A stretch of 64,000 bases of DNA from an uncultured Acidobacteriota bacterium (GTDB lineage Bacteria > Acidobacteriota > Terriglobia > Acidiferrales > UBA7541). The stretch lies in contig CAVRFZ010000025.1 of assembly GCA_963720655.1 (NCBI GenBank), positions 24,444 through 88,443 on the forward strand, in the 5' to 3' direction. The notes beneath the pieces were generated by a model. The model searched no databases and was not told the origin of the DNA. It worked only from the letters and a program-made list of their open reading frames with translations. Shown here piece by piece: positions 5,459-23,940 of this stretch; position 1 is the first letter of the stretch; every line of letters begins with the position of its first letter. Position numbers and translations under genes: made by a program.

Positions 5459-6469
5459 ATGATGAATCGGACCGTAGTAGGATTCGCGCTCGCGCTGTTT
5501 TGCGCGCCGCTCGCTTGCGCTCAAAATGTGGTGAAGTATCACACGACGATGGACGACGTGAAGTACACCTACAACAGCACCTCGGCGCCGGTCGCAAAAT
5601 TAGCCCCCGAAGACATTCTCGAAACGAACACCGTGGACGCCTTCGGCAACGCGCTTCAAAAGCCAGGCGACACGTTGGCGCTCGTAAAAGGCGACAACCC
5701 GTTGAGCGGACCCTTTTATATCGAGACCGCGGAACCAGGCGACACACTCGCGATTGAATTTCTCAAGATGGAGGTGGACTCTTCGCAGGGCGTTGGCGCG
5801 TTCGCTCCGGGTTTCGGCGCGCTGAATGAGACGTTCTACACGCCGATGGTCCATCCTCCGCTGCCCGAGCGTATTTGGTTTTATCCGATCGACAATGCGG
5901 CGGGCACCGCCACGTTTCACGCCCTCGACTCAAATTTTTCCGTGAAGTTCCCGTTGCATCCGTTCTTAGGCTGCATCGGAGTGGCGCCCGCAGGCGCCGA
6001 GGCGCGCAGCTCAGTGGTACCGGCTGAGTTCGGCGGCAATATGGACGCGCCGGAAGCGAGCGTGGGCAACACGCTCTACCTTCCCGTAAACGTTCGCGGC
6101 GCGCTGCTCTACATGGGTGACGGACACGCGGCGATGGGCGACGGCGAAGTGGCAGGCACAGCGGTTGAGGTTCCGCTGCGAGTCCGGATGCGTGTCTCGG
6201 TGATTAAGGGCAAAAAGATCGATTGGCCGCGCTTCGAAAATACCGACGAAATCATGGCCGCCGGAATCTACCGCCCGCTCGATGATTCGCTGCGAATCGC
6301 GTTCACGCAGCTAATTAGCTGGATTCATGCCGATTACGGGCTTTCGGAGCTCGACGCGTATGAACTGCTCTCAAAGGTGGCGAAGATACACCTCACCGAG
6401 ATGGTGGATCCGAACTACGTGATCATTGCGAAGATCGAAAAGAAATACCTTCCAGCCAAGATTCACTAA
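5459..6469 (+). CDS. acetamidase/formamidase-family amidohydrolase with signal peptide
   Basis: The start is set at MMNRTVVGFALALFCAPLACAQ (a signal peptide). GGNMDAPE and YMGDGHAAMGDGEV motifs match the FmdA/AmdA family. The upstream ORF extension overlaps the VIT1 gene. Confidence 0.8.
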   Translation: MMNRTVVGFALALFCAPLACAQNVVKYHTTMDDVKYTYNSTSAPVAKLAPEDILETNTVDAFGNALQKPGDTLALVKGDNPLSGPFYIETAEPGDTLAIEFLKMEVDSSQGVGAFAPGFGALNETFYTPMVHPPLPERIWFYPIDNAAGTATFHALDSNFSVKFPLHPFLGCIGVAPAGAEARSSVVPAEFGGNMDAPEASVGNTLYLPVNVRGALLYMGDGHAAMGDGEVAGTAVEVPLRVRMRVSVIKGKKIDWPRFENTDEIMAAGIYRPLDDSLRIAFTQLISWIHADYGLSELDAYELLSKVAKIHLTEMVDPNYVIIAKIEKKYLPAKIH

Positions 6470-6507
6470 CGAACCTTATCCAATGGTCGGTAGCGACAGG
6501 CCAATTG

Positions 6508-6602
6508 TGTCGATTAGACCCAGATTTCTAATCGAGACACCACGATTAAAAATGCCCGTATCTAGCTTAAAAACATACATTTGCAAATTTCTAATCGAGA
6601 CA
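6508..6602 (+). promoter_or_regulatory. repeat cluster: TGTCGATTAGA (inverted) plus two direct copies of ATTTCTAATCGAGACA
   Basis: The 16-nt motif is exact at 6524-6539 and 6587-6602 (63 nt apart). An inverted partial copy lies at 6508-6518. The cluster sits in an AT-richer spacer between the formamidase stop and the DUF3147 genes. Confidence 0.4.
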
Positions 6603-6766
6603 AAAAAGCCTTTTCGTTGTGGAGCTCGTATCGAGTGAGAAATCGCGGGAAAGGCTCAGAGGCGCGCCAGCATACCGAGAAGTGCTGATTTCAATATGCC
6701 GAGAGCTGCGCTGTAATCTCCCCGTAACATTTGCGATGGCGTGTAATTTTGCCGAGCAATCGACCC

Positions 6767-7105
6767 ATGCAAATCCTATTCCGCTTCGTCATTGGCGGTC
6801 TTGTCGTATCGCTGTTCGCTGCGTTTGCCGACGCATTGAAGCCCAAGAGCTTTGCCGGCCTCTTCGCCGCGGCGCCTTCGGTAGCGATAGGCACTCTTGG
6901 GTTGACGATTTTGAGCGAAGGGAAATTATTCGCGGCTACCGAAGCGCGGTCGATGATCTTTGGCGCGATTGCTCTGTTCTTCTACGCGATGGCGGCGATG
7001 CGGCTGATGATGAGGTACAAGCTGAATGCTGCTCCAGCAGCGTTCTCAGCCATTGCGGTGTGGATGATTTGCGCGATGGGAGTTTGGTACGTGTTGTTGC
7101 GCTGA
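6767..7105 (+). CDS. DUF3147-like small membrane protein
   Basis: The start is taken at MQILFRFVIGG. There are four hydrophobic helices, and the gene abuts a paralogous downstream gene. Confidence 0.6.
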   Translation: MQILFRFVIGGLVVSLFAAFADALKPKSFAGLFAAAPSVAIGTLGLTILSEGKLFAATEARSMIFGAIALFFYAMAAMRLMMRYKLNAAPAAFSAIAVWMICAMGVWYVLLR

Positions 7106-7591
7106 TTGCGAATGAGAGTTCACTTCGACATTTCGGATTTGAAAGATACGAAATGGTATGAGTTAGCCACGCGCTTTCTCTTCGGAGGCGCGATCACCGC
7201 TATCACCGGAATACTAGCGAACCGCTACGGACCCGTGTTCGGCGGTTTGTTCCTCGCTTTCCCTGCCCTTTTTCCCGCGAGCGCCACTCTGCTCGAGAAA
7301 CACGAGCGAGAAAAGAAAAGAAGAGCGGGAATAGCAAACACCAGTCGCGGGCGAGAGGCTGCTGCTCTGGATGCGCGCGGCGCAGCGATCGGAAGTATCG
7401 GCCTCGCCGGTTTCGCACTTATAGCGTGGAAGCTCGTGCCCATGTCGAACGGCGTGATCGCGCTTTTTGGAGCGCTTGTGGTGTGGGCCGCGATTTCAGT
7501 TCTGATCTGGCGTCTGCGCAGGCACCGCCTTTTTCTCCGCAAAGGTCACGCTGGCACTGCCTCGCACGCGCCTGTTTCGCCAAAGGGTTGA
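7106..7591 (+). CDS. DUF3147-like membrane protein (second paralog)
   Basis: TTG at 7106 or ATG at 7112. The RFLFGGAITAITG helix resembles the upstream paralog. A central basic loop is followed by C-terminal helices. Confidence 0.55.
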   Translation: MRMRVHFDISDLKDTKWYELATRFLFGGAITAITGILANRYGPVFGGLFLAFPALFPASATLLEKHEREKKRRAGIANTSRGREAAALDARGAAIGSIGLAGFALIAWKLVPMSNGVIALFGALVVWAAISVLIWRLRRHRLFLRKGHAGTASHAPVSPKG

Positions 7592-7592
7592 C

Positions 7593-8162
7593 TTACGCTT
7601 TGCGGCGAGCCGCTTTTCTGCCGTCTTCGATTCGACGCCATGCTTCTGCGGGACCTTTTACGTCGAGAATTCGATATTTCTTACCCAGATGCCTGTGGTA
7701 GTTGACGAAGAACTCTTCTAGTTCCTGCACGAATTTCTTGCCCAGGTCATCAATGTGCTTGACGTAGGCGTAGCTGTGATTTTCTTCCTCGACGCCGACG
7801 ATCCGATCGTTGCGCTGCCCTTTCTTTTTCTTGCCCTGCTCTCCTTCAATCACCCCGATCACCCGGCATTTCACGAGCACTCCGGGAAAAGCGGGCTCGT
7901 CCATTAGAACCAAAACATCCGTAGGATCGCCGTCCTCCGCTTTGGTCGAGGGAATAAAACCGAAGTCGTAAGGAAACGTCATGCCGGCGGGCAGGACCTT
8001 CGCGAGCGCGAACACTTCCTGTTCCGGGTCAAACGCGAATTTGTTCCGGCTGCCTTTGGGAGTTTCGACGATGACCTGGATCCTGCTTTGGAGGTCTTTA
8101 TCGAATGGCGCGAGGCGCGTCGGGTCGGCGAGAACGCCGCGTGATTTGATTTTTGTGGGCAT
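7593..8162 (-). CDS. ppa: inorganic pyrophosphatase
   Basis: VIVETPKGSRNKF, YPYDFGFIP-like (FPYDFGFIPST) and DGDPTDVLVL are family I PPase signatures. Confidence 0.9.
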   Translation of the reverse strand: MPTKIKSRGVLADPTRLAPFDKDLQSRIQVIVETPKGSRNKFAFDPEQEVFALAKVLPAGMTFPYDFGFIPSTKAEDGDPTDVLVLMDEPAFPGVLVKCRVIGVIEGEQGKKKKGQRNDRIVGVEEENHSYAYVKHIDDLGKKFVQELEEFFVNYHRHLGKKYRILDVKGPAEAWRRIEDGRKAARRKA

Positions 8163-8452: not shown

Positions 8453-8704
8453 GTGGCTAAGACATTCGAAGTGGAAATCAAGTTTGAGGATCGCGAGAAG
8501 GGGCCGGGAACCGTGGCGGGGAAAGCCATCGTTACGGCCGGCACCATGGCGGCGGCAATCGGAAAAGGCGTGCGCGAGATTCTCGATAAGACGGATCGAA
8601 AGCAGAATTTCGACATGCAGAAACACGGTGTCGAAATTTTGGTGCGGTCTTCTGCGGACGCGGGCGAGTCTGACGAAGCAGCCGAGTCAGCGGCCGGCGC
8701 ATAA
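8453..8704 (+). CDS. hypothetical small protein (83 aa)
   Basis: A GTG start lies 6 nt after GGAGGA. I recognised no family. The C-terminal tail is acidic. Confidence 0.4.
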   Translation: MAKTFEVEIKFEDREKGPGTVAGKAIVTAGTMAAAIGKGVREILDKTDRKQNFDMQKHGVEILVRSSADAGESDEAAESAAGA

Positions 8705-8883: not shown

Positions 8884-10371
8884 GTGGGCGCGTCGCACCT
8901 AGAATCGCGGCCTAAATCGCACAGGCCAGGCTCTGATTCGAGAATTAGTGCGATTCTCGCGGAGCCGCTAATAGCGGAGACAGCCATCACACCCGGTCCG
9001 GGTAGGCCCAAAATAGCGATTGTGGACGACGATGCCGGGTTGCGCGCAAAGATTGCGTCTGCTCTGCGTTCAGATTTTGAAGTTCTCGAAGGCGAGGACT
9101 ACGACGCAGCGGTAAAGTTGCTGGAAGAGCGAGAGTTGGATGTGTTGCTGTTGGGGTTGCCCATCGCGTCCGGCGGCGTGCGGGAGTGCACTGAGTTGTT
9201 GTCAAGGCTGGACGGAAGCAACATCGACACGCTCGTGATCGTGCTGAGTTCCGATGAAAAGAAATCCACCGCGCTGAAGGTCATCGACGCGGGCTCTTAC
9301 GACTACTTCATCAAGCCAATCGACACGGACGTGCTCCGGCACCTGCTCGAGCGCGCAGTCGAGAAGCTGCACATCCAGCGCGAGAACCGGCTGCTGCGCG
9401 AGGAAATCAGCCGGAAGAACGCGCTCGGCGATCTGATCGGGACAACGGACTCGATGCGGCATGTGTTCGACTCAATCAAGCGGATGGCCCGGGCGACGAC
9501 CAACGTGATAATTCGCGGAGAGAGCGGCGTCGGAAAAGAGCTGGTGGCCCGCGCCCTCCACGAGCAGAGCCCGCGGCGAAACCGCGCTTTCATCAGCGTA
9601 AATTGCGCGGCGCTGCCCGAGGGGCTAATGGAGGCTGAGCTTTTTGGGTACGAGAAGGGGGCCTTTACAGGAGCAGTGGGAACGAAAGAAGGCCGCGTGG
9701 AGCTGGCCCATCAGGGAACACTGTTCCTCGATGAGATTGCAACGTTGACGCCACCATTACAGAGCAAGCTACTGCGGGTGCTGGAGGACCGGTCGCTGAC
9801 GAGGTTGGGCGGAAAGAAGCAGATCAAGGTGGATTTCCGGCTAATCAGCGCGACGAACGAGGACCTGGAAGAGATGGTGCGGGACGACCGGTTCCGCGAG
9901 GACCTGTATTACAGGATCCATGTGGTGCCGATTTTCGTGCCCGCGTTGCGCGAACGGGTAGAGGATATCCCTGTGCTGGCGGAGTATTTCGTCAGCGTCT
10001 ATTGCGCGGCCAATAGCTTTCCGGCGAAGCGTATCGCCGACGACGCCATGCAAGCGTTAAAACGCTACCCGTGGCCGGGCAACGTGCGCGAACTGGAGAA
10101 TGCGATTCAGAGGCTGGTGATCATGACGGACGGAGAAACGATTGAGCTCAAGGATCTGCCGATCGACATCATGCAGGTAGTCAGCCGGGACAGGGGACGG
10201 GTTAGGCTGTCGGGAAACGGGATCAATCTGGACAGAGAGATCGAGGCCTTCGAGCGACGGTGGGTGCAGGAAGCATTGGAACAATCGAAACAGGTAAAGT
10301 CAGAGGCGGCACGACTGCTGGGTGTCGATCGGAACCGATTGAACTACCTGTGCCGTAAGTACAGCCTGTGA
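8884..10371 (+). CDS. sigma-54-dependent transcriptional activator (receiver-like domain + AAA+ + Fis-type HTH)
   Basis: Walker A GESGVGKE, sigma-54 contact loop GAFTGA, C-terminal HTH AARLLGVDRNRLNYLCRKY. The receiver-like N-terminus has DVLLLGLP where the phospho-Asp is expected. The start codon is uncertain. Confidence 0.9.
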   Translation: MGASHLESRPKSHRPGSDSRISAILAEPLIAETAITPGPGRPKIAIVDDDAGLRAKIASALRSDFEVLEGEDYDAAVKLLEERELDVLLLGLPIASGGVRECTELLSRLDGSNIDTLVIVLSSDEKKSTALKVIDAGSYDYFIKPIDTDVLRHLLERAVEKLHIQRENRLLREEISRKNALGDLIGTTDSMRHVFDSIKRMARATTNVIIRGESGVGKELVARALHEQSPRRNRAFISVNCAALPEGLMEAELFGYEKGAFTGAVGTKEGRVELAHQGTLFLDEIATLTPPLQSKLLRVLEDRSLTRLGGKKQIKVDFRLISATNEDLEEMVRDDRFREDLYYRIHVVPIFVPALRERVEDIPVLAEYFVSVYCAANSFPAKRIADDAMQALKRYPWPGNVRELENAIQRLVIMTDGETIELKDLPIDIMQVVSRDRGRVRLSGNGINLDREIEAFERRWVQEALEQSKQVKSEAARLLGVDRNRLNYLCRKYSL

Positions 10372-10430
10372 TCCGGGTCTGCTTGCACAGGAGACTGGTA
10401 TCCGTATTTGCACATGGTGAAAAATTCATT

Positions 10431-10450
10431 GGCGTTGAGTAAATCAACAC
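10431..10450 (+). promoter_or_regulatory. candidate enhancer (UAS) inverted repeat GGCGTTGAG-N4-TCAACAC
   Basis: GTTGA-N5-TCAAC palindrome about 100 nt upstream of the -24/-12 promoter at 10543. A related GCGTTGAA/TTCAAC set lies upstream of the second sigma-54 promoter. Confidence 0.35.
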
Positions 10451-10542
10451 GGTAAAGACATTGGGGCAGAAGCAATCCGGGACGCAGAATTCGATCAAAC
10501 ACATTCCACGAGACTTATCGGGCGACTCGAGTCTCGAGGTGA

Positions 10543-10558
10543 TTGGCAACTTGATTGC
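10543..10558 (+). promoter_or_regulatory. sigma-54 (-24/-12) promoter
   Basis: TGGCAACTTGATTGCA matches TGGCAC-N5-TTGCA, with GG and GC exactly 12 nt apart. It lies 52 nt upstream of the peptide-1 ATG. Confidence 0.7.
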
Positions 10559-10609
10559 AAGATAGAAAGCATCGCCCCAGAGGGGCAACTTGAGAGGGAG
10601 AACAAAGAC

Positions 10610-10678
10610 ATGGCAAAGAAAACCTTGAAGAAGTCCAAGAAGCTCGAATCGACCAAGCCGTTGATCAGCCGCGGATAA
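10610..10678 (+). CDS. small Lys-rich peptide 1 (22 aa, MAKKTLKKSKKLESTKPLISRG)
   Basis: A GAGGGAG Shine-Dalgarno sits 9 nt upstream, a sigma-54 promoter lies upstream, and two hairpin terminators follow. It shares the KKLE..K.LI.R motif with two paralogs. The ORF is below the ORF-track size cutoff. Confidence 0.6.
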   Translation: MAKKTLKKSKKLESTKPLISRG

Positions 10679-10738
10679 TTTTTAGGTGCGCCCGAAATAG
10701 TGGCGCACTTTGCGGAGAAGGATTCTTGAAATGAGAAG

Positions 10739-10764
10739 AGGCCGCTCCTAGGAGCGGCCTTTTC
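10739..10764 (+). terminator. rho-independent terminator after peptide 1
   Basis: AGGCCGCTCC-TA-GGAGCGGCCT stem followed by TTTCC. It is preceded by a second hairpin, GTGCGCC-N9-GGCGCAC-TTT, at 10686-10711. Confidence 0.7.
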
Positions 10765-11003
10765 CACGTTAGGGCCAGAAAGTTAAAGGCCAAAGTCAGG
10801 GCAGAAAAATTCTGAAGATCGGCTTCTTGACCGTACCCTGGGCCGATTGGCTCAAGAGTCCGCAGGATCAGACCTGTAAGTGCCAGTATTTTAGTCATTT
10901 AGGAAACGGCACCTCTATGGATTAAGTTGGTTGCGCGTGATTCCGCGGCAGATTAGACTTTCTATCGTAGATGGAGCTCAACTTTTCATAACACGGTGCA
11001 AAA

Positions 11004-11099
11004 ATGAAGTCCAAACCGAAGCCAAAAACCCTTAAGAAGTCGACCAAACTCGAACCCTTGAAATCCCTCATCGTCCGCGCTCCTTGGGCCTCAAAGTAG
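11004..11099 (+). CDS. small Lys-rich peptide 2 (31 aa, MKSKPKPKTLKKSTKLEPLKSLIVRAPWASK)
   Basis: It is a paralog of peptide 1 (TLKKS.KLE..K.LI.R) with synonymous codon differences. An in-frame TAA lies 12 nt upstream of the ATG. The SD is weak (GGTG) and no clear promoter was found. Confidence 0.5.
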   Translation: MKSKPKPKTLKKSTKLEPLKSLIVRAPWASK

Positions 11100-11122
11100 C
11101 GACGGTTCCGTCAACCAGCCAG

Positions 11123-11917
11123 CTATTTACCCCTCTTACGAGCCAAGTACATCGTTCGCAGACCTGTAGATACTCGTCGGTTGCTGGGGGGCGCGGCGAG
11201 ATCGCTAAAATCCAGAACACGAACTAGTTCCAGCCCAGCCTGCCTGAGGTGGCGGATTATATCGGCATGGGGCCACTCGATTTCTTCCAGCAGGTCATCG
11301 TGGCGCTCCCAAAGGTCCTTTCGACCACGAATGAACCAAGTTACTCGATTCCAGCCTTTACCCCTCTTGCGGTCGAATCCGCCGTGCTCGACTGCAAAGA
11401 AATTCGGTCCTTCACCATAATTGGTTATGGACCAGTGCTGTTCGTAAAGGAGCCGCTGGTGCAAATCGAAGTAGAAATAGCCCCCGGGACGAAGCGCGCG
11501 GGCAACGGCCCGGGCAACTTGAGCCAATTGGGAGCGGTTGGGCAGGTGATTTATCACGCCCCATTGCGAGCAAACCAGATCGACTGGCTCGGGAAGGCTG
11601 AAGGTGCGCATGTCCGCCCGCCAGACACGTACGCGGAGCCCCGTCGCGCGCACCTTCCCACGCGTGACGCGGCACATTTGTGGGGATAAATCGACGGCAT
11701 AGACTTTCAGGCCCCGTCGCGCGAAATCAATGGCAGCCGTGCCGCTTCCGCAGCCAAGCTCACACACGCTTTTGACTCCGGGAAGAATCGAACGGAGCAA
11801 TTTTTCCCGGTTGCGAACCCAAGACTTTTCATAGAGAGGCCAGATCTCGTCGTAAACGGGGCCTAGTTCGGCGTAGGTGTTCGGTTTTGGCGCGATCTTT
11901 GTGGATGGGCGGGGCAA
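11123..11917 (-). CDS. class I SAM-dependent methyltransferase
   Basis: Motif I VCELGCGSGTAAIDFA, then acidic D in VYAVDLSP, and motif-IV-like LVCSQWGVINHL. Confidence 0.85.
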   Translation of the reverse strand: MPRPSTKIAPKPNTYAELGPVYDEIWPLYEKSWVRNREKLLRSILPGVKSVCELGCGSGTAAIDFARRGLKVYAVDLSPQMCRVTRGKVRATGLRVRVWRADMRTFSLPEPVDLVCSQWGVINHLPNRSQLAQVARAVARALRPGGYFYFDLHQRLLYEQHWSITNYGEGPNFFAVEHGGFDRKRGKGWNRVTWFIRGRKDLWERHDDLLEEIEWPHADIIRHLRQAGLELVRVLDFSDLAAPPSNRRVSTGLRTMYLARKRGK

Positions 11918-11981
11918 CAGGGCTCCTAAACGAGCGCCCTTTATATCAGGGGAGCGTGATTTTGCCCACCGCTAAAGGGGC

Positions 11982-12028
11982 GGCGTTGAAACGTTGGATT
12001 TTTCAACAACATGAGCAAAATTCAACGC
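11982..12028 (+). promoter_or_regulatory. candidate enhancer (UAS) half-sites GGCGTTGAA / TTCAACAAC / TTCAACGC
   Basis: Inverted GCGTTGAA (11983) and TTCAACGC (12021), plus an internal TTCAAC (12003), lie 85-125 nt upstream of the sigma-54 promoter at 12110. Confidence 0.35.
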
Positions 12029-12109
12029 TTACTGAGCTCAAATCAGAGGGTAGGCGTGCGCCGCCGTGCCTAAGTGGTTTGATTTTAAGCCAGGAGAGGG
12101 AATTGTGTT

Positions 12110-12125
12110 TGGCGCGCGAATTGCA
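12110..12125 (+). promoter_or_regulatory. sigma-54 (-24/-12) promoter
   Basis: TGGCGCGCGAATTGCA has GG and GC exactly 12 nt apart. It lies 53 nt upstream of the peptide-3 ATG, the same geometry as at peptide 1. Confidence 0.7.
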
Positions 12126-12177
12126 CTTGCTCTGAACAAGCCCGGGCAGGGACGAGACCAAGAAAAAGGGACGAATC

Positions 12178-12288
12178 ATGAATCCAACCGCGAAGCCAGT
12201 AAAGAAAAACAAGAAAGTCGAGCCGGCAAAGAAGCTCGAGCGTAAAACACCGCTGATGTCCGTGCGCAGTCTCACGGTGAAGTGGTAG
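12178..12288 (+). CDS. small Lys-rich peptide 3 (36 aa, MNPTAKPVKKNKKVEPAKKLERKTPLMSVRSLTVKW)
   Basis: AAGGGA SD about 8 nt upstream, sigma-54 promoter upstream, two hairpins downstream, and the shared KKLE..K(T)PL motif. Confidence 0.6.
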   Translation: MNPTAKPVKKNKKVEPAKKLERKTPLMSVRSLTVKW

Positions 12289-12372
12289 GGGATTAAGTCG
12301 TCCCGAGATTTTAACGATCTTCCGACCTTGCGCTCCGCTAGGTCGGGAGTTTGAAGTAGCAGCAACCCCGAA

Positions 12373-12406
12373 GGGCCGCCGTCCCAGGAACGGCGGCCCT
12401 TTCTTT
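12373..12406 (+). terminator. rho-independent terminator after peptide 3
   Basis: GGGCCGCCG-loop-CGGCGGCCC stem followed by TTTCTTT. A further hairpin CCGACCT/AGGTCGG lies at about 12333-12357. Confidence 0.7.
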
Positions 12407-12429
12407 GTGACCGCGTCCAATCCCCACAA

Positions 12430-14577
12430 TCACCACCAAACCTGAGAACGCAACCAGTGCCAAGCGCTTCGACTCATCTGCCAGGCCAACGGCCTGCTCT
12501 TCGCTGTAATCTTGGCGACACCGGTCATCCCGGCGCTGAGTGAGCCGTCGGAGTTCGGAAATACCATCACGACGGCGAAGCGGTTAGTCAGTTCCTGCCC
12601 TAGTCGCGTTAGCTTTTGCGTGTCAGAGATGGGCGCATCGGTAGCGGCGGCGGGAAGAATCTGCTCCACATGGCCTGTGTAGGTGCGAAAAGCGTAGGGC
12701 AGAACTTTCACTCTTACAGGAGCACCGGCACGAATGTCGTTCAGATCGCGATCAGAGACGAAAATGCGCGCTTTCATCGTGCGAGCGTCAGAGAGGCGGC
12801 AGAATTCTTCGCCAGCGGCGAGAAACTGGCCGACTCGCTGGCGAATTTCGGAAGTTGTCACGATGCCGTCAAAGGGGGCGCGAATTTGTAGCGCGTCGAG
12901 ATTGGATGTGGCGACGGCGAGTTCTTTCTGAAGACGGATGCGTTCGCGCACGGACTGGGCAGACTTCCCGGATGCAGGCTGGTCCTGATTCTCTCGAAGG
13001 TTGCTGCTAGCCAAGGTGAGTTCGATGGTGGTCTTTCTGGCCTCCGCTTCAATCTCCGGGTTCTGCAGAACGGCGAGGAGTTGACCCGCCTTAACCTCTT
13101 GACCCTGGCGAACGAATACCTCTGAGATTGTTCCGGCAACTGAGGTGCGGAGATGCGCGGCCTTACCGGGCTCGAGGAGGAGTTCGGAGGAGACGCTGGT
13201 GGGGATAGGAGGCACGAATAAGAGCAAAGCGACTCCTAAGACGCCGAAAGTCTGAGCGCGCGTTAATCTCCAGGTCATGTAGGACCCCCCCTGTTTTCGA
13301 ATCCATGCGCGGGCGACAGGCACGGATGATTTGATCCCCTTTCGCGCGAAAAAATAAAGCACACCGGCAAACAAGAAATAGCCCCAGTCTCCGAACTTTG
13401 AGACGAGCACATTCTTCGCGAACAACAGGACCACGGCCAGCAGGGCGGCACTGTAGATGATTGCTGTGACGCCGAAAATGAAGAAGATTCGCCGGTGGCG
13501 GCGGCTGGAAGGAGGAAGATCAATATCCCGGCGAAAAATGTATTTCTGCGCCCAAACGCGCAGGAAAGCGAATGCGTCTTCGCGCAAGTTGTCGATATCG
13601 AGGAACTGCGAGAGGGCGTAATAACCATCGGCTTTGATGAGCGGATTCAGGTTTAAAACAGCGCCCTGTATGCCGCTGAGAAGCATCATCTTGTACGCCA
13701 AGTCACTAACGATAGTGCCGGGTGCGGTGAAGTGCCAGATCACGGCTGAAGTGCTGCAAAGAAGAAGCTCCACCCAGATGCCGGCGAAGATCACCCATTG
13801 GCGGCGTGAAGTGCGATCAAAGAGAAGGATATCTGTGGTGTCGGTATAAAAGGCGGGCGTCAGGTAGATCAGCAAAAACCCCATTTGGTGAACGTCGCCG
13901 CCGAAGTGCTTGCAGGTAAGCCCGTGGCCGAACTCGTGGACTGCGCCGAGCAGCAGAAGCAGGATCCAAAACGCCCACACATCGTAGGCGCTCTTTTCGG
14001 CGAAGGAATAAAGCGATGAAGTGTCGCGCTGCACCCGGCTCCAGTCGCCAGCTACAAAATAGGCCGCCGTGACAAACAGGAGGATGCAAAAAAACACGAA
14101 CTGAGTAGTGTAAATCCAGCTGAGATAAGGATCGAGCTTCGCGAGGGTTTTATTTGGGTCCCAGGCCTTGAAGCTGATGTATAGCATGCTGGACTGGTCG
14201 ACGCGGCCTTTGCGTTCGTCGCGGATGCGTTCAAGAACCGCGAGATTTTTTTCGCCCAGGGACCGTTCCCACATGGCGGGCTCAATTGAATCGAGAAATT
14301 CGAGAACTTCGGATTCCGCGATCGCAGAATCGGGGTCTTGTTCGGCGAGCGCCTCGGATATCTCGGCCGGTGTACGTGTTCCGTCGCACAGCAAAAGCAG
14401 CTGATATTCGAATTCACCGTAACGGTTGTAGGAATTGGTTTCGTAATTCTTGATGACGTAACTCTTTTCGCCATTCACGGTCTGTTCGCTGATGCGCAGA
14501 TCGGAGCGAAGCTTGGGGCGCCGCAATCCTTTGGAGAGGACGCTCGAGACCTGAATACTGGTGGGGCCAAAGCGCAT
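12430..14577 (-). CDS. triple-fusion protein: PqqD-like RRE domain + M50 site-2-protease membrane domain + HlyD-type periplasmic adaptor domain
   Basis: The N-terminus SYVIKNYETNSYNRYGEFEYQLLLLCDGTRTPAEISEALAE...VLEFLDSI is PqqD-like. HEFGHGLTCK (HExxH) and LNLNPLIKADGYY (NxxPxxxxDG) are M50 motifs within a multi-TM block. The C-terminus has a lipoyl-like hairpin (VAGTISEVFVRQGQEVKAGQLLAVL ... IRAPFDGIV). Confidence 0.8.
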   Translation of the reverse strand: MRFGPTSIQVSSVLSKGLRRPKLRSDLRISEQTVNGEKSYVIKNYETNSYNRYGEFEYQLLLLCDGTRTPAEISEALAEQDPDSAIAESEVLEFLDSIEPAMWERSLGEKNLAVLERIRDERKGRVDQSSMLYISFKAWDPNKTLAKLDPYLSWIYTTQFVFFCILLFVTAAYFVAGDWSRVQRDTSSLYSFAEKSAYDVWAFWILLLLLGAVHEFGHGLTCKHFGGDVHQMGFLLIYLTPAFYTDTTDILLFDRTSRRQWVIFAGIWVELLLCSTSAVIWHFTAPGTIVSDLAYKMMLLSGIQGAVLNLNPLIKADGYYALSQFLDIDNLREDAFAFLRVWAQKYIFRRDIDLPPSSRRHRRIFFIFGVTAIIYSAALLAVVLLFAKNVLVSKFGDWGYFLFAGVLYFFARKGIKSSVPVARAWIRKQGGSYMTWRLTRAQTFGVLGVALLLFVPPIPTSVSSELLLEPGKAAHLRTSVAGTISEVFVRQGQEVKAGQLLAVLQNPEIEAEARKTTIELTLASSNLRENQDQPASGKSAQSVRERIRLQKELAVATSNLDALQIRAPFDGIVTTSEIRQRVGQFLAAGEEFCRLSDARTMKARIFVSDRDLNDIRAGAPVRVKVLPYAFRTYTGHVEQILPAAATDAPISDTQKLTRLGQELTNRFAVVMVFPNSDGSLSAGMTGVAKITAKSRPLAWQMSRSAWHWLRSQVWW

Positions 14578-14589
14578 GGGTCGCGGTGC

Positions 14590-15528
14590 CTATGGTTTCG
14601 CTTTTGCAGTGCCCGGCCAAATCACATGTACAGCCATGCCGGGCCGCAAATCGGAAATTCCGGTTCCGACAAGCTGCGCGGTGACGTCGTAGCTGTCACT
14701 TGCGGGATCGACGGTGGGACTAACCTTCACCACGCGGGCTGAAAACGTGCGGCCGGAATTATCGACAAGCGAGAGATCGACGGGCGCGCCACGCTCGGGA
14801 CGCCTGGGGGAAGCTTCGGAAACCTGAAATTGGACCTGAAGGGGCGAAAGCTGGCTGATGCGAAAACACTTGTCATTCTTGGCCACCGTCTGACCTTCAC
14901 GAACATAGCGGCGCACGACGACACCGCTGAATGGGGCGCGCAGTCGGGTTTGGTCCAGTTGAATTTCGAGGCGATGAATTTCCGAATGGCTGCTTTCGAC
15001 CAGGGCTTGCCATCCATGCATATCGTATTCGGCGCCTTTTGCTTCAAACTCGGCGGCTTCCAGATCGGCTTCGCTTGAAAGCCCATATTCACGCAGCTGC
15101 TGTTGGCGTCTTAGAGCCGCGGCTTTGGCCTTGAGCTCGGCCTCTTTGAATTTCACGTTATTCTCGGCAACGGTGAGATCGTTGCGGGCCTTGTTGAGCT
15201 CCATCTGAAGGCTGCGGTCATCGAGCTGCCCTAGAATTTCACCGGCTTTGACGGCGCTGCCTTCGTCTTTCGCGAGGGAGGTGACGACACCGTCGCGCTC
15301 GGCAGAGAGATCCACTTGGTGCTCCACGGAGAGCACGCTGAGAACGTCGTTTGGCTCAGGAGGCTTGACGGTGGCGGTTGGTCCCGGCGGTTGTGACGGT
15401 CGCGAAGGCACGGCCGAAGACGGAGGTGGAGCGGCAGAAGTGGAATCCGGCGCGTGAGAAGAATCGCCACAGCCCGCCAGCGCGAGCGCCAAAGTTACGA
15501 TTGGAAGATACGTTGAACGTCTCATCAT
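14590..15528 (-). CDS. HlyD-family periplasmic adaptor lipoprotein
   Basis: Lipobox LALAGCGD, a Pro/Ser-rich linker, then barrel-sandwich and coiled-coil motifs (AERDGVVTSLAKDEGSAVKAGEILGQLD ... LRAPFSGVVV). Confidence 0.8.
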   Translation of the reverse strand: MMRRSTYLPIVTLALALAGCGDSSHAPDSTSAAPPPSSAVPSRPSQPPGPTATVKPPEPNDVLSVLSVEHQVDLSAERDGVVTSLAKDEGSAVKAGEILGQLDDRSLQMELNKARNDLTVAENNVKFKEAELKAKAAALRRQQQLREYGLSSEADLEAAEFEAKGAEYDMHGWQALVESSHSEIHRLEIQLDQTRLRAPFSGVVVRRYVREGQTVAKNDKCFRISQLSPLQVQFQVSEASPRRPERGAPVDLSLVDNSGRTFSARVVKVSPTVDPASDSYDVTAQLVGTGISDLRPGMAVHVIWPGTAKAKP

Positions 15529-15546
15529 GTCCCCTGCCCCTTCAGC

Positions 15547-17976
15547 TTACGGAAGCCAGCTCCAGACCTTCTGCCAAATCCAGCGAAATGGATCACGAAA
15601 TAGTGCGTAGCCTATCGGGTACCATCCGGTATGGAACCATTCGAGCGGGCCGCCTGCGGCGCGGATGCGAACGCGGCCAACCATTCCGTCGCGAGCGCGC
15701 CCGCCGGAATTCGAAAAGAGAGCGCGTACTAGAAAGTATTGGTCCCCAGCATCGGAATGAGTTTGAGCGCCGATACGATCGACGGTCCCGAAGAATGTTG
15801 CCGTCGGGAAGGCATTGAGCTTAAGGGCGACTTCCTTGCCAGGATGGACGAGGGCCAAATCCGTTTCAGGCACGCTCATTTCGGCGGCCATCCGTTCCTG
15901 GTCGACGATCTCGGCGAACGGATCTCCTGCCTTGACCATCACGCCAGTTTTCTCTTCAATTTTCGGCGTCACAACCACACCAGCAATCGGCGCACGAAGA
16001 TCCGCAGAGGCGACGCGCTGCTGTTCGAGTTTCACTTCGGCAGCATGAAGGTCGGCGCGCATTTTGGCTTGTCCTGCGGCCGATGGATCGTTACGAAATT
16101 CCGCTTCCGCAATTTCACGGCGAGCCTGCGCGAGAGCGGCTTCGGCTTGGGCAAGCTTGATGCGATCTTCGCTGTCGTCAAGCTGGGCAAGAGATTGGCC
16201 CGGCTGCACAGTTTCGCCTTCGCGAACGAAAACGTGCCGCACGACTCCGCCTTCGATCGAGCTAACAATGCGGCGCTCAGCGGGGACCACGGTAGCATCC
16301 GTACGCACGCGCACAGGCCATGGCACCAGAATAAGAATGGCGGCAACAATGGCGGCGCGCTCAGCATATAGGCGCCAGCGCTCCTTCGGCATCGCGGCAG
16401 CCAGGCGCTTTTTCTGTTCGGCAAGCGGCTGGAAAATATTCGCGAGCGGAACCTGCTGATAAAGCTGCGCATTGCGGATTGCAACAGTCGTCTGGTTGGC
16501 GAGAATCGAGACAGTCTCTTTGTTGGCGTCGGTGAGGAAGTCTGCGTCGCTGCTAAGAAGTATCATCGCGCCAAGAACGCCCTGATCGTCGCGCAGCGGC
16601 AAGGCATACGTGCCGTTGAGCTCGTAGGCTTCGAGGTATGAAACGAGCTGCGCGCGAGCATCTTCCGGATCGGCGTGCCAGCCATCGTCGTATTTATCGA
16701 CGGCGACGGGGCCTTCCTGCTGGGATACCCATTCCAGCCGGTCGCGCAGTTCGCTCATCTCGCGCGTTTTTGGAACCTCCGCTTCGCCCGAGACGGCGCC
16801 AAGAACGAATTTACGCCGATCGAAAAAGCCGATGACTAATTTGTCGAACGGAACTACGGAGGCGGCTTGCTGGGCGACAGTGGAAAGAACGTGATCGAGG
16901 TCCAGCGTGGATGTGATTTCCTGCGAAATTTTTAGAAGAGCGTCAAGGGCGTAGACCTTACGTTCGGATTCAAGAAGATTCGCATTGTGCAAGGCGACAG
17001 CAGCCTGCTCGCTGATGCTTTCGAGGAAAAAAAGATCTTCTTCGTTAAAGGGAGTGCCGTCTGCTTTGTTCACCAGCTCGACGATGCCGAGAACCTCGTT
17101 TTCCTTTCGTAGCGGCGCCGCCATCCACGACTCGATCTCGAATTCTCCGCCAGCCTTGATGCGCTCTTCGAGACCCGGTTCTTCCGATGGCGTTTCAAGG
17201 AGCTTCGGATTTCCCGCCTGGGCAATTTCACCGAGCAGCCCTTCGCTCGCGGAAACACTCGCACCTTGCTCCACCGTCGGATCCACTCCTGCGGTATTGG
17301 CCAGACGAAGTTCGTCTCCCGCCGCGAGCCACAGATTGCAGCCCTCAGCTCCGAGAATGTCTTTGATTTTGCCGGCGACGATGGGCAGCAGCTCTTCTAA
17401 CTCGAGTGTGGATGTGAAGGTGCGGCCAAGGTCGTAGAGAGCAGTGAGGCGTTCGAGAGTTGCGAGCTGGGCGTGGCGCTCGCCTTCTATAGCTTCGAGA
17501 TTCGTGAGAGCCTGGCCTGCAAGCCGCGCCGCTTCTTCGAGAAAATGCGCGTCTTGCTCTGTAAAGTTCCCGGCTCTCTTGTTCAGGACCTCGACCACGC
17601 CTTCGGGCCCTTCGACGCCGGGAAGGGAGGCAAACATTGCAGATTTGACGCGGACCCGGCTCGTCTCCTCCAGATGCTCGAGATCATCAAGCGACAGATC
17701 CTGCGCGCTAAGGCGGCTGGTGCTTGCCGACTCAAACACGATGGCGAGAGGACCTTCAGTGACCGGTTCGCTGGAGGGCACAATCCGCTCGCCGGTTTCG
17801 GTCCAGCGCGTACGGCATGCAAGCCCTTCCGATTCAGAATCGTGAATCCACACGAATACGGCGCGCGCTCCGAGCGTGGTGCCCACGCGAGCGGCAAACG
17901 TCTTCAAAAGCGTGTCCTGATCGCGACACGCTAGAGACACGCTCGCGAGTTCGAAGAGCGCCGAAGATGTTTCCAT
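15547..17976 (-). CDS. GAF-domain (about 3 copies) - TM - HlyD-type adaptor fusion protein
   Basis: The start is set at METSSALFEL with a GGGAGA SD. About 520 cytoplasmic residues carry repeated GAF-like units. A single TM (AAIVAAILILVPWPV) follows, then HlyD motifs (IEGGVVRHVFVREGETVQPGQSLAQLD ... LRAPIAGVVV). Confidence 0.8.
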   Translation of the reverse strand: METSSALFELASVSLACRDQDTLLKTFAARVGTTLGARAVFVWIHDSESEGLACRTRWTETGERIVPSSEPVTEGPLAIVFESASTSRLSAQDLSLDDLEHLEETSRVRVKSAMFASLPGVEGPEGVVEVLNKRAGNFTEQDAHFLEEAARLAGQALTNLEAIEGERHAQLATLERLTALYDLGRTFTSTLELEELLPIVAGKIKDILGAEGCNLWLAAGDELRLANTAGVDPTVEQGASVSASEGLLGEIAQAGNPKLLETPSEEPGLEERIKAGGEFEIESWMAAPLRKENEVLGIVELVNKADGTPFNEEDLFFLESISEQAAVALHNANLLESERKVYALDALLKISQEITSTLDLDHVLSTVAQQAASVVPFDKLVIGFFDRRKFVLGAVSGEAEVPKTREMSELRDRLEWVSQQEGPVAVDKYDDGWHADPEDARAQLVSYLEAYELNGTYALPLRDDQGVLGAMILLSSDADFLTDANKETVSILANQTTVAIRNAQLYQQVPLANIFQPLAEQKKRLAAAMPKERWRLYAERAAIVAAILILVPWPVRVRTDATVVPAERRIVSSIEGGVVRHVFVREGETVQPGQSLAQLDDSEDRIKLAQAEAALAQARREIAEAEFRNDPSAAGQAKMRADLHAAEVKLEQQRVASADLRAPIAGVVVTPKIEEKTGVMVKAGDPFAEIVDQERMAAEMSVPETDLALVHPGKEVALKLNAFPTATFFGTVDRIGAQTHSDAGDQYFLVRALFSNSGGRARDGMVGRVRIRAAGGPLEWFHTGWYPIGYALFRDPFRWIWQKVWSWLP

Positions 17977-18183
17977 TGCTCTCCCTGGAGGGGCGTTCTC
18001 ACACCCGCCCCCGCGCCGAGCCCGGAGACCGGGGGAAAGAGAACGCGCGGAGCCTAACAAAAGGGGCTGTAGCGCGTCAAGGAACTGTCCCCTAATGGCC
18101 CCGATAAACAGGACATACGAGAGTGCAAACCCTTGATTGCGGAGCGCAATTCAGTTAGCTTTGCAACTCGCTGTGAGGTACCT

Positions 18184-18519
18184 GTGAATATTGGTATTCG
18201 CAAAGCCGGACAAGCCACGATCCTGGATCTTGAGGGCCCCCTCAAACTTGGTGAGGCGGAAGAGGCATTCCGCAGTCAGATTCAGCAACTGATGGATGCG
18301 GGATCCACTCGCGTTGCCGTGAACCTGGCGGGTGTAACCGAGCTTGATAGCTCGGGAATTGGCGCTCTCGTCCGTTCTTTTACGATGTTGAAGCGGGCGG
18401 GCGGAAAATGCACGTTTTTCGCGCCGAGTAAGCGCGTGATGATGCTGCTGAAAATGGTGCGCCTGGATTCGATATTGGACCTTTCGGAAGACGAAGCCAC
18501 AGCGCTAACGCGCATTTAG
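18184..18519 (+). CDS. STAS-domain protein (anti-sigma-factor-antagonist type)
   Basis: GTG start after GAGG. ILDLEGPL...VAVNLAGVTELDSSGIGALV is the SpoIIAA/RsbV pattern with the conserved Ser. Confidence 0.8.
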   Translation: MNIGIRKAGQATILDLEGPLKLGEAEEAFRSQIQQLMDAGSTRVAVNLAGVTELDSSGIGALVRSFTMLKRAGGKCTFFAPSKRVMMLLKMVRLDSILDLSEDEATALTRI

Positions 18520-19442: not shown

Positions 19443-20108
19443 CTAACGGCGGTCGAGAGCGGGGTGGCGGACGTCGCGGCCGGCAACAAAGTAGATAACG
19501 TCCTCGGCGATGTTCGTGGCGTGGTCGCCAATGCGCTCGAGATTCTTGGCAACGAGAATCAGCTCGAAAGCGGCAAACACCACCGCAGAATTTTCCATCA
19601 TGTAAGTAAGCAACTCGCGAAAGAGCTGATCACGCAAGCGATCCACCTGGTCGTCGCGCTGAAGAACGCTGCGGGCAAGATCAATATCGCCGCGGACCAG
19701 CGCATTCAAGCTATCGCGCACCATCCCTTCGGCGAGTTCGCTCATGCGGGGCAGATCGACGTAAGGCTTTACCTGGGGATGGCGCAGAACGCGCATCGCG
19801 GACTGCGCGATGTTGACGGCCTGATCGCCGATGCGTTCGAGGTCGCCGTTAATACGCGAGACCGCCAAGAGAAAACGCAGGTCGGCAGCCATCGGTTGCT
19901 GCAATGCGAGCAGCCGCTGTACGCGCTCGTCAATTTCGATCTGCATTTCATTGATCGCATCTTCTTCGCTAAGCACAATTTCAGCGAGGTGTTCTTCGGC
20001 GTCCAACACGGCGTGCACAGCCTGGTGTACCGCGCGCTCGGCCAGACTTCCCATCCAGAGCAGACGCTGCTTCAGTTCTTCGAGGTCGCGTTCAAAATGG
20101 CGTTCCAT
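19443..20108 (-). CDS. phoU: phosphate signalling complex protein PhoU
   Basis: Two PhoU repeats, each with E(D)xxxD motifs (INGDLERIGDQAVNIA, VAKNLERIGDHATNIAEDV). It lies immediately downstream of pstB. Confidence 0.9.
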   Translation of the reverse strand: MERHFERDLEELKQRLLWMGSLAERAVHQAVHAVLDAEEHLAEIVLSEEDAINEMQIEIDERVQRLLALQQPMAADLRFLLAVSRINGDLERIGDQAVNIAQSAMRVLRHPQVKPYVDLPRMSELAEGMVRDSLNALVRGDIDLARSVLQRDDQVDRLRDQLFRELLTYMMENSAVVFAAFELILVAKNLERIGDHATNIAEDVIYFVAGRDVRHPALDRR

Positions 20109-20166
20109 GTAATCTCAGTCCCCTTCACTCGAAAGCCGGAAACCGGGCCCAAAGCAGCACAGAGAA

Positions 20167-21006
20167 TCATCCGAAACGGCCGGTGATGTACGCTTCTGTG
20201 CGCGGGTCGGTCGGCGTTGTAAACAGTTTCGAAGTCTCGCTGTGCTCGATCAGTTTTCCGTCCAGCATGAACGCGGTGAAATCGCTGGCGCGCGCTGCCT
20301 GTTGCATGTTGTGCGTCACAATGGCCATCGTGCAGCTGTCTTTGAGCTGGAACATCAACTCCTCGATTTTGGCCGTGGTTACGGGATCGAGAGCGGAGCA
20401 CGGCTCGTCGAGCAAAAGAACTTCAGGATCGACAGCGAGAGCCCGCGCGATGCAAAGGCGCTGCTGCTGCCCGCCAGAGAGCGCAAAGGCCGACTTCTTG
20501 AGGTAGTCTTTCACTTCTTCCCACAGGGCAGCGCGACGCAAGCTTTTTTCCACGAGATCGTCGAGGCGTCCTTTGAAGCCATTCACCCGCAAGCCGTAGG
20601 CCACATTCTCGTAGATGGATTTGGGAAATGGGTTCGGCCGCTGGAACACCATGCCAACCCGGCGGCGCAGTCCGACCACATCCATTCCGTGAATATCTTG
20701 CTGGTCGAGCAAGATTTCGCCCTGCACACGGGTGTTCCGGATTGTTTCGTTCATGCGGTTGAGGGTACGCAGAAACGTCGACTTGCCGCAGCCCGATGGT
20801 CCAATTAGCGCGGTAATCTTGTTGGTCGGAATGTTCAAATTGAGACCGAAGACCGCCTGTTTGGGTCCATAGAAGACGTCGAGGTTCGAAATCTTAAAAC
20901 GCAACGGTGAGCTTTTTTCGGAACCCGTTGGTGTCGGCTCGGTCATCCGGACCTCCGTCGCAATCCGCTCAGCGGCGGGATTCTTTCCTTGAGTTGCTGA
21001 TGCCAT
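20167..21006 (-). CDS. pstB: phosphate ABC transporter ATP-binding protein
   Basis: Walker [10 protein letters not shown], signature [14 protein letters not shown], Walker B LLLDEP. The start is taken at MASATQ, 1 nt after the pstA stop. Confidence 0.9.
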
Positions 21007-21007
21007 G

Positions 21008-22857: not shown

Positions 22858-22858
22858 G

Positions 22859-23878: not shown

Positions 23879-23918
23879 GGTGGCAGTACTCTCCTTAGGA
23901 GCGTATCTTTTGTCGGGA

Positions 23919-23940
23919 TTGTTACAGCTGCGTTACATAC
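23919..23940 (-). promoter_or_regulatory. candidate Pho box upstream of pstS
   Basis: The minus strand reads TGTAAC-GCAGC-TGTAAC (direct repeat, 11-nt period), 43-59 nt upstream of the pstS ATG. Compare the E. coli CTGTCAT-N4-CTGTCAT arrangement. Confidence 0.45.

Follow-up and report, generated by a model that had tools for sequence, protein, structure and literature searches.

A conserved acidobacterial module pairs sigma-54-type small peptide genes with a predicted protease-adaptor fusion protein

Results

Gene content of the locus

The DNA analysed here, referred to as the window, is a stretch of 64 kb from an uncultured bacterium of the Acidobacteriota (assembly GCA_963720655.1, contig CAVRFZ010000025.1, positions 24,444 to 88,443 of the forward strand); all positions below are counted within it. 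By open reading frame (ORF) listing, translation and domain searches, we find in it a module whose genes span 8884-18519. In order, these encode a STAS protein, a GAF-HlyD protein, a lipoprotein of the HlyD family, a fusion protein that we call RRE-M50-HlyD, one or more small peptides whose genes converge on that of the fusion, and a sigma-54 activator, that is, a bacterial enhancer-binding protein (bEBP). In the fusion, RRE stands for the recognition element of peptides that are made by the ribosome and then modified post-translationally (RiPPs), M50 for an intramembrane metalloprotease and HlyD for a periplasmic adaptor.

Most of this layout had been proposed in an earlier, sequence-only reading of the window. 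It described a GAFTGA-type enhancer-binding protein at 8884-10371, then three paralogous Lys-rich ORFs of 22-36 amino acids (aa), with an S-adenosylmethionine (SAM) methyltransferase among them and strong terminators after two of them. Converging on the peptides it saw a three-gene minus-strand operon, in which a protein with three GAF domains, a transmembrane (TM) segment and an HlyD part, together with a lipoprotein HlyD, stands beside the fusion; a STAS gene was placed divergently. Our ORF and domain searches agree with it throughout: the genes, both -24/-12 promoters and both terminators are all found where it had put them.

Conservation of the module

Relatives were gathered in two sets. 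The close set consists of 80 loci (L001-L080) from a scan of species-representative genomes, with fusion proteins 62-98% identical to that of the window; nearly all are named Acidobacteriota, mostly 'Candidatus Acidiferrales'. The distant set consists of 80 soil and peat loci (L081-L160) from a metagenome scan with a divergent 16-sequence sub-alignment, and its fusion proteins are ~30% identical. Only contigs with enough flank enter the synteny denominators; for the STAS gene, both flanks had to exceed 5 kb.

The GAF-HlyD gene is kept in 75/76 close and 41/42 distant loci, and the same counts apply to the lipoprotein HlyD gene. A bEBP gene convergent with that of the fusion occurs in 73/74 close and 33/35 distant loci, and the STAS gene in 55/67 and 18/19, respectively. 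Small Lys-rich ORFs and a sigma-54 activator had been predicted to recur in the neighbourhood of fusion homologues, and both do: besides the bEBP counts above, peptide units are present in 76/81 close sources and small peptide genes in 50 distant loci. When all ORFs of at least 120 aa in the close set are clustered, nothing beyond the module is conserved except the lineage synteny of pst/phoU. Over the 160 loci, more than 94% of the contigs with enough flank keep the gene order. The module is thus conserved from 98% down to ~30% identity of the fusion protein, and its gene arrangement is real, far beyond chance.

The RRE-M50-HlyD fusion protein

The fusion protein (715 aa; 12430-14577, minus strand) is composed, according to domain searches and an AlphaFold2 (AF2) model, of an RRE (residues ~21-100), a seven-TM M50/site-2 protease (S2P) and a MacA-like adaptor (residues 458-713). 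Its residues 23-417 align to the family NF041824 (daptide_HExxH) over model positions 3-371 of 379, with E 3.9e-54 and 184.2 bits, the family cut-off being 300. The match to NF058609, the YydH/LiaK epipeptide protease, is at E 1.1e-13 and 51.5 bits (cut-off 225). By sequence, the daptide leader peptidase is a homologue of the RRE-M50 part. Since it was RRE domains, fused to the N-terminus of an intramembrane S2P, that led to the discovery of daptide clusters, as reported in the daptide paper, RRE-M50 is a known type of RiPP leader peptidase.

Family profile and predicted fold together identify the N-terminal domain as an RRE. A profile of residues 16-128, built on 30 members of the family, finds TbiB1, TfuB1 and two PqqD structures as its top four matches in the PDB (E 0.0017-0.009); TbiB1 and TfuB1 are lasso-peptide RREs. 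Pfam PqqD (PF05402) is matched by 19/30 family members, with a best E of 8.5e-7, and one relative is named by NCBI 'PqqD family peptide modification chaperone'. The AF2 model has a mean pLDDT of 86.3, with ~90 in the RRE region, where it predicts strands at 28-34, 37-44 and 49-54 and helices at 55-62, 70-80 and 88-97.

In the model, a strongly conserved linker helix and seven hydrophobic helices are also seen, the latter carrying the motifs HEFGH (214-218) and NLNPLIKADG (309-318). In 48 sequences of 24-57% identity, no variation is seen at H214, E215, H218, P312, D317 and G318 and almost none at N309 and N311. As the catalytic residues are invariant, the protease is expected to be active. The C-terminal part is modelled as a lipoyl / alpha-hairpin / beta-barrel adaptor. 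HlyD_3/HlyD_D23 match residues 472-646 (HlyD_3 E 6.6e-18), the best Foldseek hits are MacA, MexA and AcrA (E ~1e-13), and the sequence match to MacA reaches E 6.9e-30. Because the model has an odd number of TM helices, the RRE is probably cytoplasmic and the adaptor periplasmic.

Conservation within the fusion is strongest in the N-terminus, RRE and linker, and the periplasmic adaptor evolves fastest: between close relatives, residues 1-140 are 88-100% identical and the adaptor part 48-85%. This conservation of RRE and linker parallels that of the peptide leader described below, and each fusion lineage is paired with its own leader type. We also note genomes in which the fusion has fallen to 80-89% identity and GAF-HlyD still has 95-96%.

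A phmmer search against 1.84 billion cluster representatives returned 19,321 matches, 2,819 of them with E <1e-30. Among the best, many have a length of ~700 aa and can be aligned from end to end, their identity being 26-36%. Public names given to the fusion are 'efflux adaptor' and 'putative peptide zinc metalloprotease protein' (JGI, from the YydH name).

The companion adaptors

Upstream in the operon lies a lipoprotein periplasmic adaptor with a long alpha-hairpin (14590-15528, minus strand; HlyD_D23 E 2.7e-20). It has the lipobox LAGC, and its Cys20 and R141 are invariant in 16 orthologues, distant ones included. Its hairpin counts ~94 residues between the lipoyl halves, compared with ~60 in the other two adaptors. 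At the tip we find the pattern R-x3-L-x6-S (RQQQLREYGLSS), and this RLS motif is present in 77/79 close orthologues. The RLS motif is a hairpin signature of periplasmic adaptors (Chem Rev review, PMC8277102).

The third adaptor (809 aa; 15547-17976, minus strand) combines three GAF domains on the cytoplasmic side (E 1e-33, in three stretches) with a TM segment and an HlyD part (HlyD_D23 E 5.4e-22). Its reading frame extends without a stop as far as a TTG at 18060; given the homologues' N-termini (METxSALFELASV), the start is most likely the ATG at 17976. On the RND_mfp model the three adaptors score 91, 153 and 97 bits, the lipoprotein, at 153, being above the cut-off.

No transporter, outer-membrane factor or ABC ATPase is encoded in the locus or among the ten large window ORFs that we scanned. 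This had been read from the sequence before, and it extends to the relatives, where no ABC or TolC partner is conserved. A search of the window with TolC-family (OEP) proteins, a weak test, found none. The queries came from an Oligoflexia metagenome-assembled genome (L161), where the M50-HlyD fusion, a short HlyD and GAF-HlyD are flanked by two OEP genes (6431-7930 and 13626-15179); no sigma-54 peptide gene was found in that locus. A pump or an outer-membrane factor encoded elsewhere in the genome is possible. In some close loci a MacB-like permease of the ADOP type is inserted divergently between the STAS and GAF-HlyD genes (e.g. L023 3660-6188); this permease may be the partner pump, or just a paralogue that is common in Acidobacteria.

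Small peptide genes

Three small genes lie on the plus strand between those of the bEBP and the fusion. Pep1 (10610-10678) encodes 22 aa, MAKKTLKKSKKLESTKPLISRG, made up of a leader MAKKTLKKSKKLESTKPL and the tail ISRG; tblastn finds its homologues in 59/80 loci. Pep2 (11004-11099) encodes 31 aa, MKSKPKPKTLKKSTKLEPLKSLIVRAPWASK, with leader MKSKPKPKTLKKSTKLEPLKSL and tail IVRAPWASK, and has homologues in 15 loci. One of these, in L054, has the RAPWAxK tail in common and a sigma-54 promoter of its own. Pep3 (12178-12288) encodes 36 aa, MNPTAKPVKKNKKVEPAKKLERKTPLMSVRSLTVKW, with leader MNPTAKPVKKNKKVEPAKKLERKTPL and tail MSVRSLTVKW, and has homologues in 23 loci. The public protein collections list the exact pep3 sequence solely as 'hypothetical protein' and have no entry for pep1 or pep2.

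To count such genes across the close set, we defined a unit as a Lys-rich ORF of 15-60 aa that lies between the fusion and bEBP genes and starts 45-60 nt after a TGGC-N7-TTGCA element. There are 121 such units. The consensus leader is MAKKTLKKSKKLExTKPL, and its K-P-L end is common to the peptides. Mean identity is 60% over the last 16 leader residues versus 7% in the tails, whose length ranges from 3 to 30 residues. Even among relatives with 95-96% identical GAF-HlyD proteins, the tails read ISRG, SKSR, MRTH and QRPGI. Some close-set tails repeat a KPLMxV-like unit, as in KPLMNVKPLMNVKPLIRVS.

Within the leader, codon-position entropy is 0.58 at the first, 0.09 at the second and 0.75 at the third position (48 distinct DNA sequences), and the invariant leader Leu is written as both CTG and TTG. 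These entropies show purifying selection on the leader as protein; judged by its codons, the peptide ORFs are under selection at the protein level. Strong Shine-Dalgarno sequences precede the ORFs.

Several other identities of the small genes were considered and rejected. They are not attenuators or upstream-ORF leader peptides, as each ends at a strong terminator with no gene following on the same strand. The peptides are highly basic and hydrophilic, which speaks against hydrophobic type I toxins or small membrane proteins. Nor do we see a known small RNA (sRNA), Rfam giving only a sub-threshold, terminator-like match. Pfam and NCBIfam searches assign the peptides to no family, and with Rfam and PADLOC included there is none for the peptides or for the module.

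Precursors in distant lineages

A different, equally conserved leader, MSIQKKSLISTLKTTKKANVA, is carried by the 53 small genes of the 50 distant loci mentioned above. These have strong Shine-Dalgarno sequences and, upstream, a TTTGGCAY-N5-YTGCA promoter. A module of the MSIQKKSLIS type is found in Terriglobia. Of 51 distinct peptides, 34 have a C-terminal part built of a 3-11-residue unit repeated in 3-12 tandem copies. The units vary by locus (for example AKM, KVH, NTRA, TLAKG, KLGTQ, KTPGA and VTNRRPKMA), and nearly every one contains K or R. Examples can be seen in L108 (between 3192 and 3738), L130 and L119.

Two Blastocatellia-type loci, L166 and L168, encode precursors of 133-144 aa with ~8 repeats of xxDRANPxx or LVGVTMEERSNP, preceded by sigma-54 promoters. 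In L168, a further RRE-M50 protease (421 aa) is encoded that stands alone. The genes of this locus (10239-14914 and 14955-16276) run in the order operon, histidine kinase, bEBP, 144-aa repeat precursor, second RRE-M50 protease; next door is a GAF-SpoIIE phosphatase, a possible partner-switching link to the STAS proteins found elsewhere.

In L165 and L167, longer fusions (810-814 aa) stand beside arrays of 4-7 paralogous ORFs of 46-67 aa (L165 775-1650 and 7094-7778; L167 6791-7869) with a conserved (L/I)EE(L)EERIAP leader and cores rich in Asn, Pro and Gly. The arrays seem to represent another family of peptides, handled by a protease-adaptor of the same kind.

Promoters, enhancers and terminators

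Pep1 is preceded by the -24/-12 element TGGCAACTTGATTGCA (10544-10559, plus strand), 50 nt before its ATG, and pep3 by TGGCGCGCGAATTGCA (12110-12125, plus strand), 52 nt before its ATG. The distance had been put at about 52 nt for two of the peptide ORFs, with none for pep2, and indeed pep2 has no canonical -24/-12 element of its own. The pattern TGGC-N7-TTGCW has only 3 matches in the whole window. Among related loci, the strict promoter pattern occurs 109 times in the 124 kb of fusion-bEBP gaps (0.88/kb), always on the peptide strand, versus 31 times in the 1,497 kb elsewhere (0.021/kb), a 42-fold enrichment.

Upstream of both promoters are enhancer-like palindromes: a perfect one, GTTGAGTAAATCAAC (10434-10448), 110 bp before the pep1 -24 element, and one with a single mismatch, GTTGGATTTTTCAAC (11993-12007), 117 bp before the pep3 promoter, with further half-sites at 11985-11989 and 12021-12026. 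Of 116 peptide promoters, 60 have the 15-bp motif GTTGA-N5-TCAAC at 110-130 bp upstream of the -24 element. In 1.66 Mb the motif has 87 copies, compared with ~1 expected by base composition. The distant clade (L081-L160) lacks this palindrome. There, GGTTAA/TTAACC words are the commonest 7-mers upstream of the peptide promoters (37/53, a raw frequency without background control). Such a difference between the clades would be expected of a dedicated activator evolving together with the sites that it binds.

Intrinsic terminators follow pep1 (10735-10768, plus strand; dG -25.8 kcal/mol, z -4.48, then UUUU) and pep3 (12370-12408, plus strand; dG -26.6 kcal/mol, z -4.41, then UUUCUUU). The latter, placed between two convergent genes, probably serves both. 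Taken together, -24/-12 spacing, an upstream enhancer and a GAFTGA activator, all that marks a sigma-54 regulon unit, can be recognized in the DNA.

The activator

The bEBP (8884-10371, plus strand) consists of a receiver domain (Response_reg E 1.6e-13), an AAA+ domain with GAFTGA (Sigma54_activat E 2e-69) and HTH_8 (E 5e-6). Its receiver has no phospho-acceptor Asp: the segment around it reads LDVLLLGLP (residues ~85-96, LDVLLLGLPIAS). At the acceptor position, G or A is found in 74/74 close loci; in the distant ones it is D in 32/47, with N, H or G in the rest. Judged by these residues, the domain is a pseudo-receiver that is not phosphorylatable in the window clade. The activator of this clade must therefore be controlled otherwise than by phosphorylation, and the STAS protein and the cytoplasmic GAF domains are candidate controllers. 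In one Blastocatellia locus, a histidine kinase gene lies directly upstream of the bEBP gene.

Accessory genes

Between pep2 and pep3, on the minus strand, is the gene of an accessory class I SAM methyltransferase (11123-11917; Methyltransf_25 E 1.6e-19). Its best NCBIfam match is the daptide methyltransferase, at 59.9 bits with a cut-off of 175, and it is found in only ~11/80 related loci, in either orientation. A SET-domain gene (PF00856 E 6.5e-19), of the protein lysine methyltransferase family, occurs in 14/80 loci, by the Lys-rich peptide genes or directly after that of the bEBP (L014 5945-6457, L021 7536-7991, L031 12218-12682). A GSP_synth/ATP-grasp-like gene (E 2.8e-11) takes the same position in 8/80 loci, e.g. 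L002 13916-15157. Each of these candidate tailoring genes is present in some loci only, inserted between the peptide genes and that of the bEBP, and none is core. With no modifying enzyme conserved across the related loci, the product may be an unmodified, merely cleaved peptide.

Neighbouring genes

The STAS gene (18133-18519, plus strand; Pfam STAS E 4.2e-15), divergent from the operon, encodes an anti-sigma-antagonist-like protein; its true start may be the GTG at 18184. Beyond it, outside the module, follow PAP2, phoU and the pst operon. The phoU and pstBACS genes and a putative PhoR/PhoB pair occupy 19443-26862 and adjoin the module. We rejected a functional tie: this adjacency occurs in many close Acidiferrales loci and is absent from the distant ones, and being kept among close relatives only, it probably reflects synteny and not function.

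An 83-aa ORF upstream of the bEBP gene (8453-8704, plus strand) has a good Shine-Dalgarno sequence and no Pfam family, and is conserved in close relatives. It is found only in the 12 closest loci and was rejected as a core part. PADLOC gives no match for the three HlyD proteins or the STAS protein, for which reason we set aside an anti-phage defence reading. Farther away, at 44249-46207 (plus strand), lies the gene of a histidine kinase that has PAS domains after an ethylene-receptor-like N-terminus (ETR1_N, E 7e-41). With it, the sensor kinases or phosphorelay proteins at 25-49 kb of the window number at least 6.

Discussion

We propose that the module is dedicated to the production and export of peptides, with leader-guided intramembrane cleavage coupled to export, and we hold this to be probable, with modest confidence. 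In this scheme, the bEBP would bind the palindromic enhancers ~110-130 bp upstream and give rise to short monocistronic peptide transcripts that end at strong terminators. Their products would be cytoplasmic Lys-rich precursors, each with a conserved leader and a hypervariable C-terminal part. The RRE of the fusion would dock the leader, and the M50 domain would cut near the KPL boundary; in tandem-repeat precursors, it probably cuts between the repeat units. The released peptide or peptides would then enter a periplasmic tunnel formed by the three adaptors, namely the fusion domain, GAF-HlyD and the lipoprotein HlyD, and the long RLS-tipped hairpin of the last could dock a TolC-like duct whose gene lies elsewhere. 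Gating of the machine, or feedback on expression, is probably the part played by the GAF domains and the STAS protein. Once exported, the peptides are most likely strain-specific signals or antagonistic peptides.

A bolder version can be imagined, which we regard as tentative and rather doubtful. In it the three adaptors and the fused M50 protease form a new, pump-less secretion route through the diderm envelope, with the leader-guided protease itself as inner-membrane entry port. Precursors of a single unit or of tandem repeats would be chopped into many copies of short, strain-specific peptides that make up a sigma-54-gated code for communication or kin discrimination among Acidobacteria and some further phyla of the soil.

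A number of observations weigh against peptide export of this kind. The N-terminal and central domains of the fusion had been named PqqD-like and M50 from the sequence. Profile matches hold for the first at family level and the motifs are in place for the second, but the window protein alone remains below the Pfam gathering cut-offs, at 18.1-20.7 bits versus 23.4 for PqqD and, just under, 25.9 versus 27.2 for Peptidase_M50. The peptides are very hydrophilic, unlike the classical transmembrane substrates of S2P. Tail variability could reflect relaxed constraint and not diversifying selection, with the Lys-rich part then as the functional moiety. The locus lacks an outer-membrane factor and no energy source for export is evident. 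A MacB-like ADOP permease (833-842 aa, duplicated) is adjacent in 13/80 close loci, and since Acidobacteria carry many orphan ADOP permeases, a pump in trans is possible. Finally, homologues of the fusion in Verrucomicrobia and Planctomycetes come without the partner genes.

According to the main rival explanation, the module belongs to an ordinary tripartite exporter, with a MacB-like/ADOP or other ABC/MFS pump and a TolC-like duct supplied in trans, and RRE-M50 only removes the leader, like the C39 domains of CvaB-type exporters; the pump-less look would then be an artefact of viewing one locus, and the system less unusual. The nearest match of the adaptor domain is MacA, which works with MacB; the duplicated FtsX-type ADOP permease does occur by the operon in those 13 loci; and outer-membrane factors are often unlinked, with the OEP genes of L161 as a linked case. 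We nevertheless consider this explanation unlikely. No permease is nearby in 67/80 close loci or in the distant loci examined, and the ADOP permeases are here without an ATPase partner. Three adaptors, one of them fused to a 7-TM protein, do not resemble MacAB, AcrAB or HlyBD operons. Deep as the synteny of the core is, a pump gene has never been fixed in it.

Alternatively, the peptides may never leave the cell. They could be intracellular or membrane-face regulators, of the bEBP, GAF or STAS proteins, that RRE-M50 destroys or activates, or the polycationic N-terminus may itself be active; the HlyD assembly would then have a separate role in the envelope. It is true that the conserved portion is the Lys-rich N-terminus and that tails can be as short as 3-4 residues. 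The pseudo-receiver bEBP, cytoplasmic GAF domains and STAS protein suggest an intracellular signalling circuit, and S2P proteases classically act in regulated proteolysis. A protease covalently fused to a periplasmic adaptor and accompanied by an RLS-tipped lipoprotein adaptor points, however, to traffic across the envelope. Secreted signals or toxins, and not housekeeping regulators, typically show identical tandem repeats and hypervariability at strain level, and in other lineages the fusion goes together with precursor genes in bacteriocin-like arrays. Purely internal regulators are, on balance, quite improbable.

That the small ORFs are not genes at all, the sigma-54 promoters driving non-coding sRNAs or being adjacent by chance, can be recommended by the shortness of the ORFs and by the absence of pep1 and pep2 from protein collections, but is effectively excluded by near-invariant second codon positions beside variable first and third ones, an invariant Leu encoded by both CTG and TTG, strong Shine-Dalgarno sequences, an amino-acid leader kept across the 160 related loci while the DNA diverges, and no match to an Rfam family.

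Acidobacteria are among the most abundant soil bacteria. To our knowledge, almost nothing is known of their signalling or competition. Peptide production and export by this module, if true, would imply a family of ribosomal peptides whose cores are hypervariable or present in many copies, leader cleavage coupled to export without an ABC transporter, and a clean sigma-54 circuit of enhancer, promoter, peptide and terminator that is directly testable. RRE-S2P peptidases, first used to discover daptides, would serve much broader peptide families. The fusion family is widespread and its module tightly conserved, yet, where annotated, its genes bear only names like 'efflux adaptor' or 'hypothetical protein'.

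Comparison with known systems

The nearest known relatives of the fusion are the daptide proteases DapP/MpaP (NF041824), in which an N-terminal RRE is likewise fused to M50, beside several precursor genes with a conserved leader. The sequence-only reading had stated that no known RiPP enzyme is present. This stands for modifying enzymes, none being conserved, but not for the leader peptidase, as the RRE-S2P type that it left unmentioned is known from these very daptides. Nonetheless, the window protein stays, with its 184.2 bits, below the 300-bit equivalog cut-off. It differs from the daptide protease by its C-terminal periplasmic adaptor, a diderm host and two more adaptors. No oxidative decarboxylase, aminotransferase, DUF-RRE or ADH is found in the locus or conserved in the 160 related loci; the locus has only the generic methyltransferase. 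Daptides have an invariant C-terminal Thr and an ELExMEAP leader, whereas the window peptides end in G, K or W after a Lys-rich leader, and the window module is under predicted sigma-54 control. With the defining enzymes and the C-terminal Thr absent, we rejected identity with a daptide cluster.

YydH/LiaK of the yydFGHIJ system is also an M50 membrane protease acting on a small ribosomal peptide, and matches weakly (51.5 vs 225 bits). Unlike yydFGHIJ, the window has neither a radical-SAM epimerase nor a YydIJ-type ABC transporter, and it has the RRE and HlyD parts in addition.

The one-step logic that we propose here, a leader protease coupled to an HlyD-family adaptor and a TolC-like duct, is that of CvaAB-TolC and of the NHLP-type systems with HlyD and a C39-ABC protein. 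There, a cytoplasmic C39 protease sits on an ATP-powered ABC transporter; here, an M50 intramembrane protease sits on the adaptor itself, with no ABC protein and with three adaptor paralogues instead of one. MacAB-TolC is similar in its adaptor, as the window adaptors are closest to MacA by sequence and fold and the lipoprotein paralogue has an RLS tip. It is dissimilar in that no MacB gene is conserved in the locus, and in that one of the window adaptors carries three cytoplasmic GAF domains and another a protease, unlike MacA as it is known.

Lastly, in the pheromone maturation of Firmicutes by Eep/RseP, with export through PptAB, a protease of the S2P family makes short secreted signal peptides, as we propose for the window module. 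The substrates there are lipoprotein signal peptides or short hydrophobic peptides (SHPs), exported by a separate ABC transporter, and, unlike the window module, those systems have no RRE, adaptors or sigma-54 control.

We found no description of the RRE-M50-HlyD fusion, the GAF-HlyD protein or the sigma-54 peptide module in the literature, a provisional result as most papers in subscription journals lay outside the search. The individual parts are of known kinds, and their assembly is provisionally undescribed in the searchable literature. What appears new in it, with the same reservation, is the fusion of protease and adaptor, the presence of three adaptor paralogues and no pump, and precursors, hypervariable or built of tandem repeats, that are driven by sigma-54.

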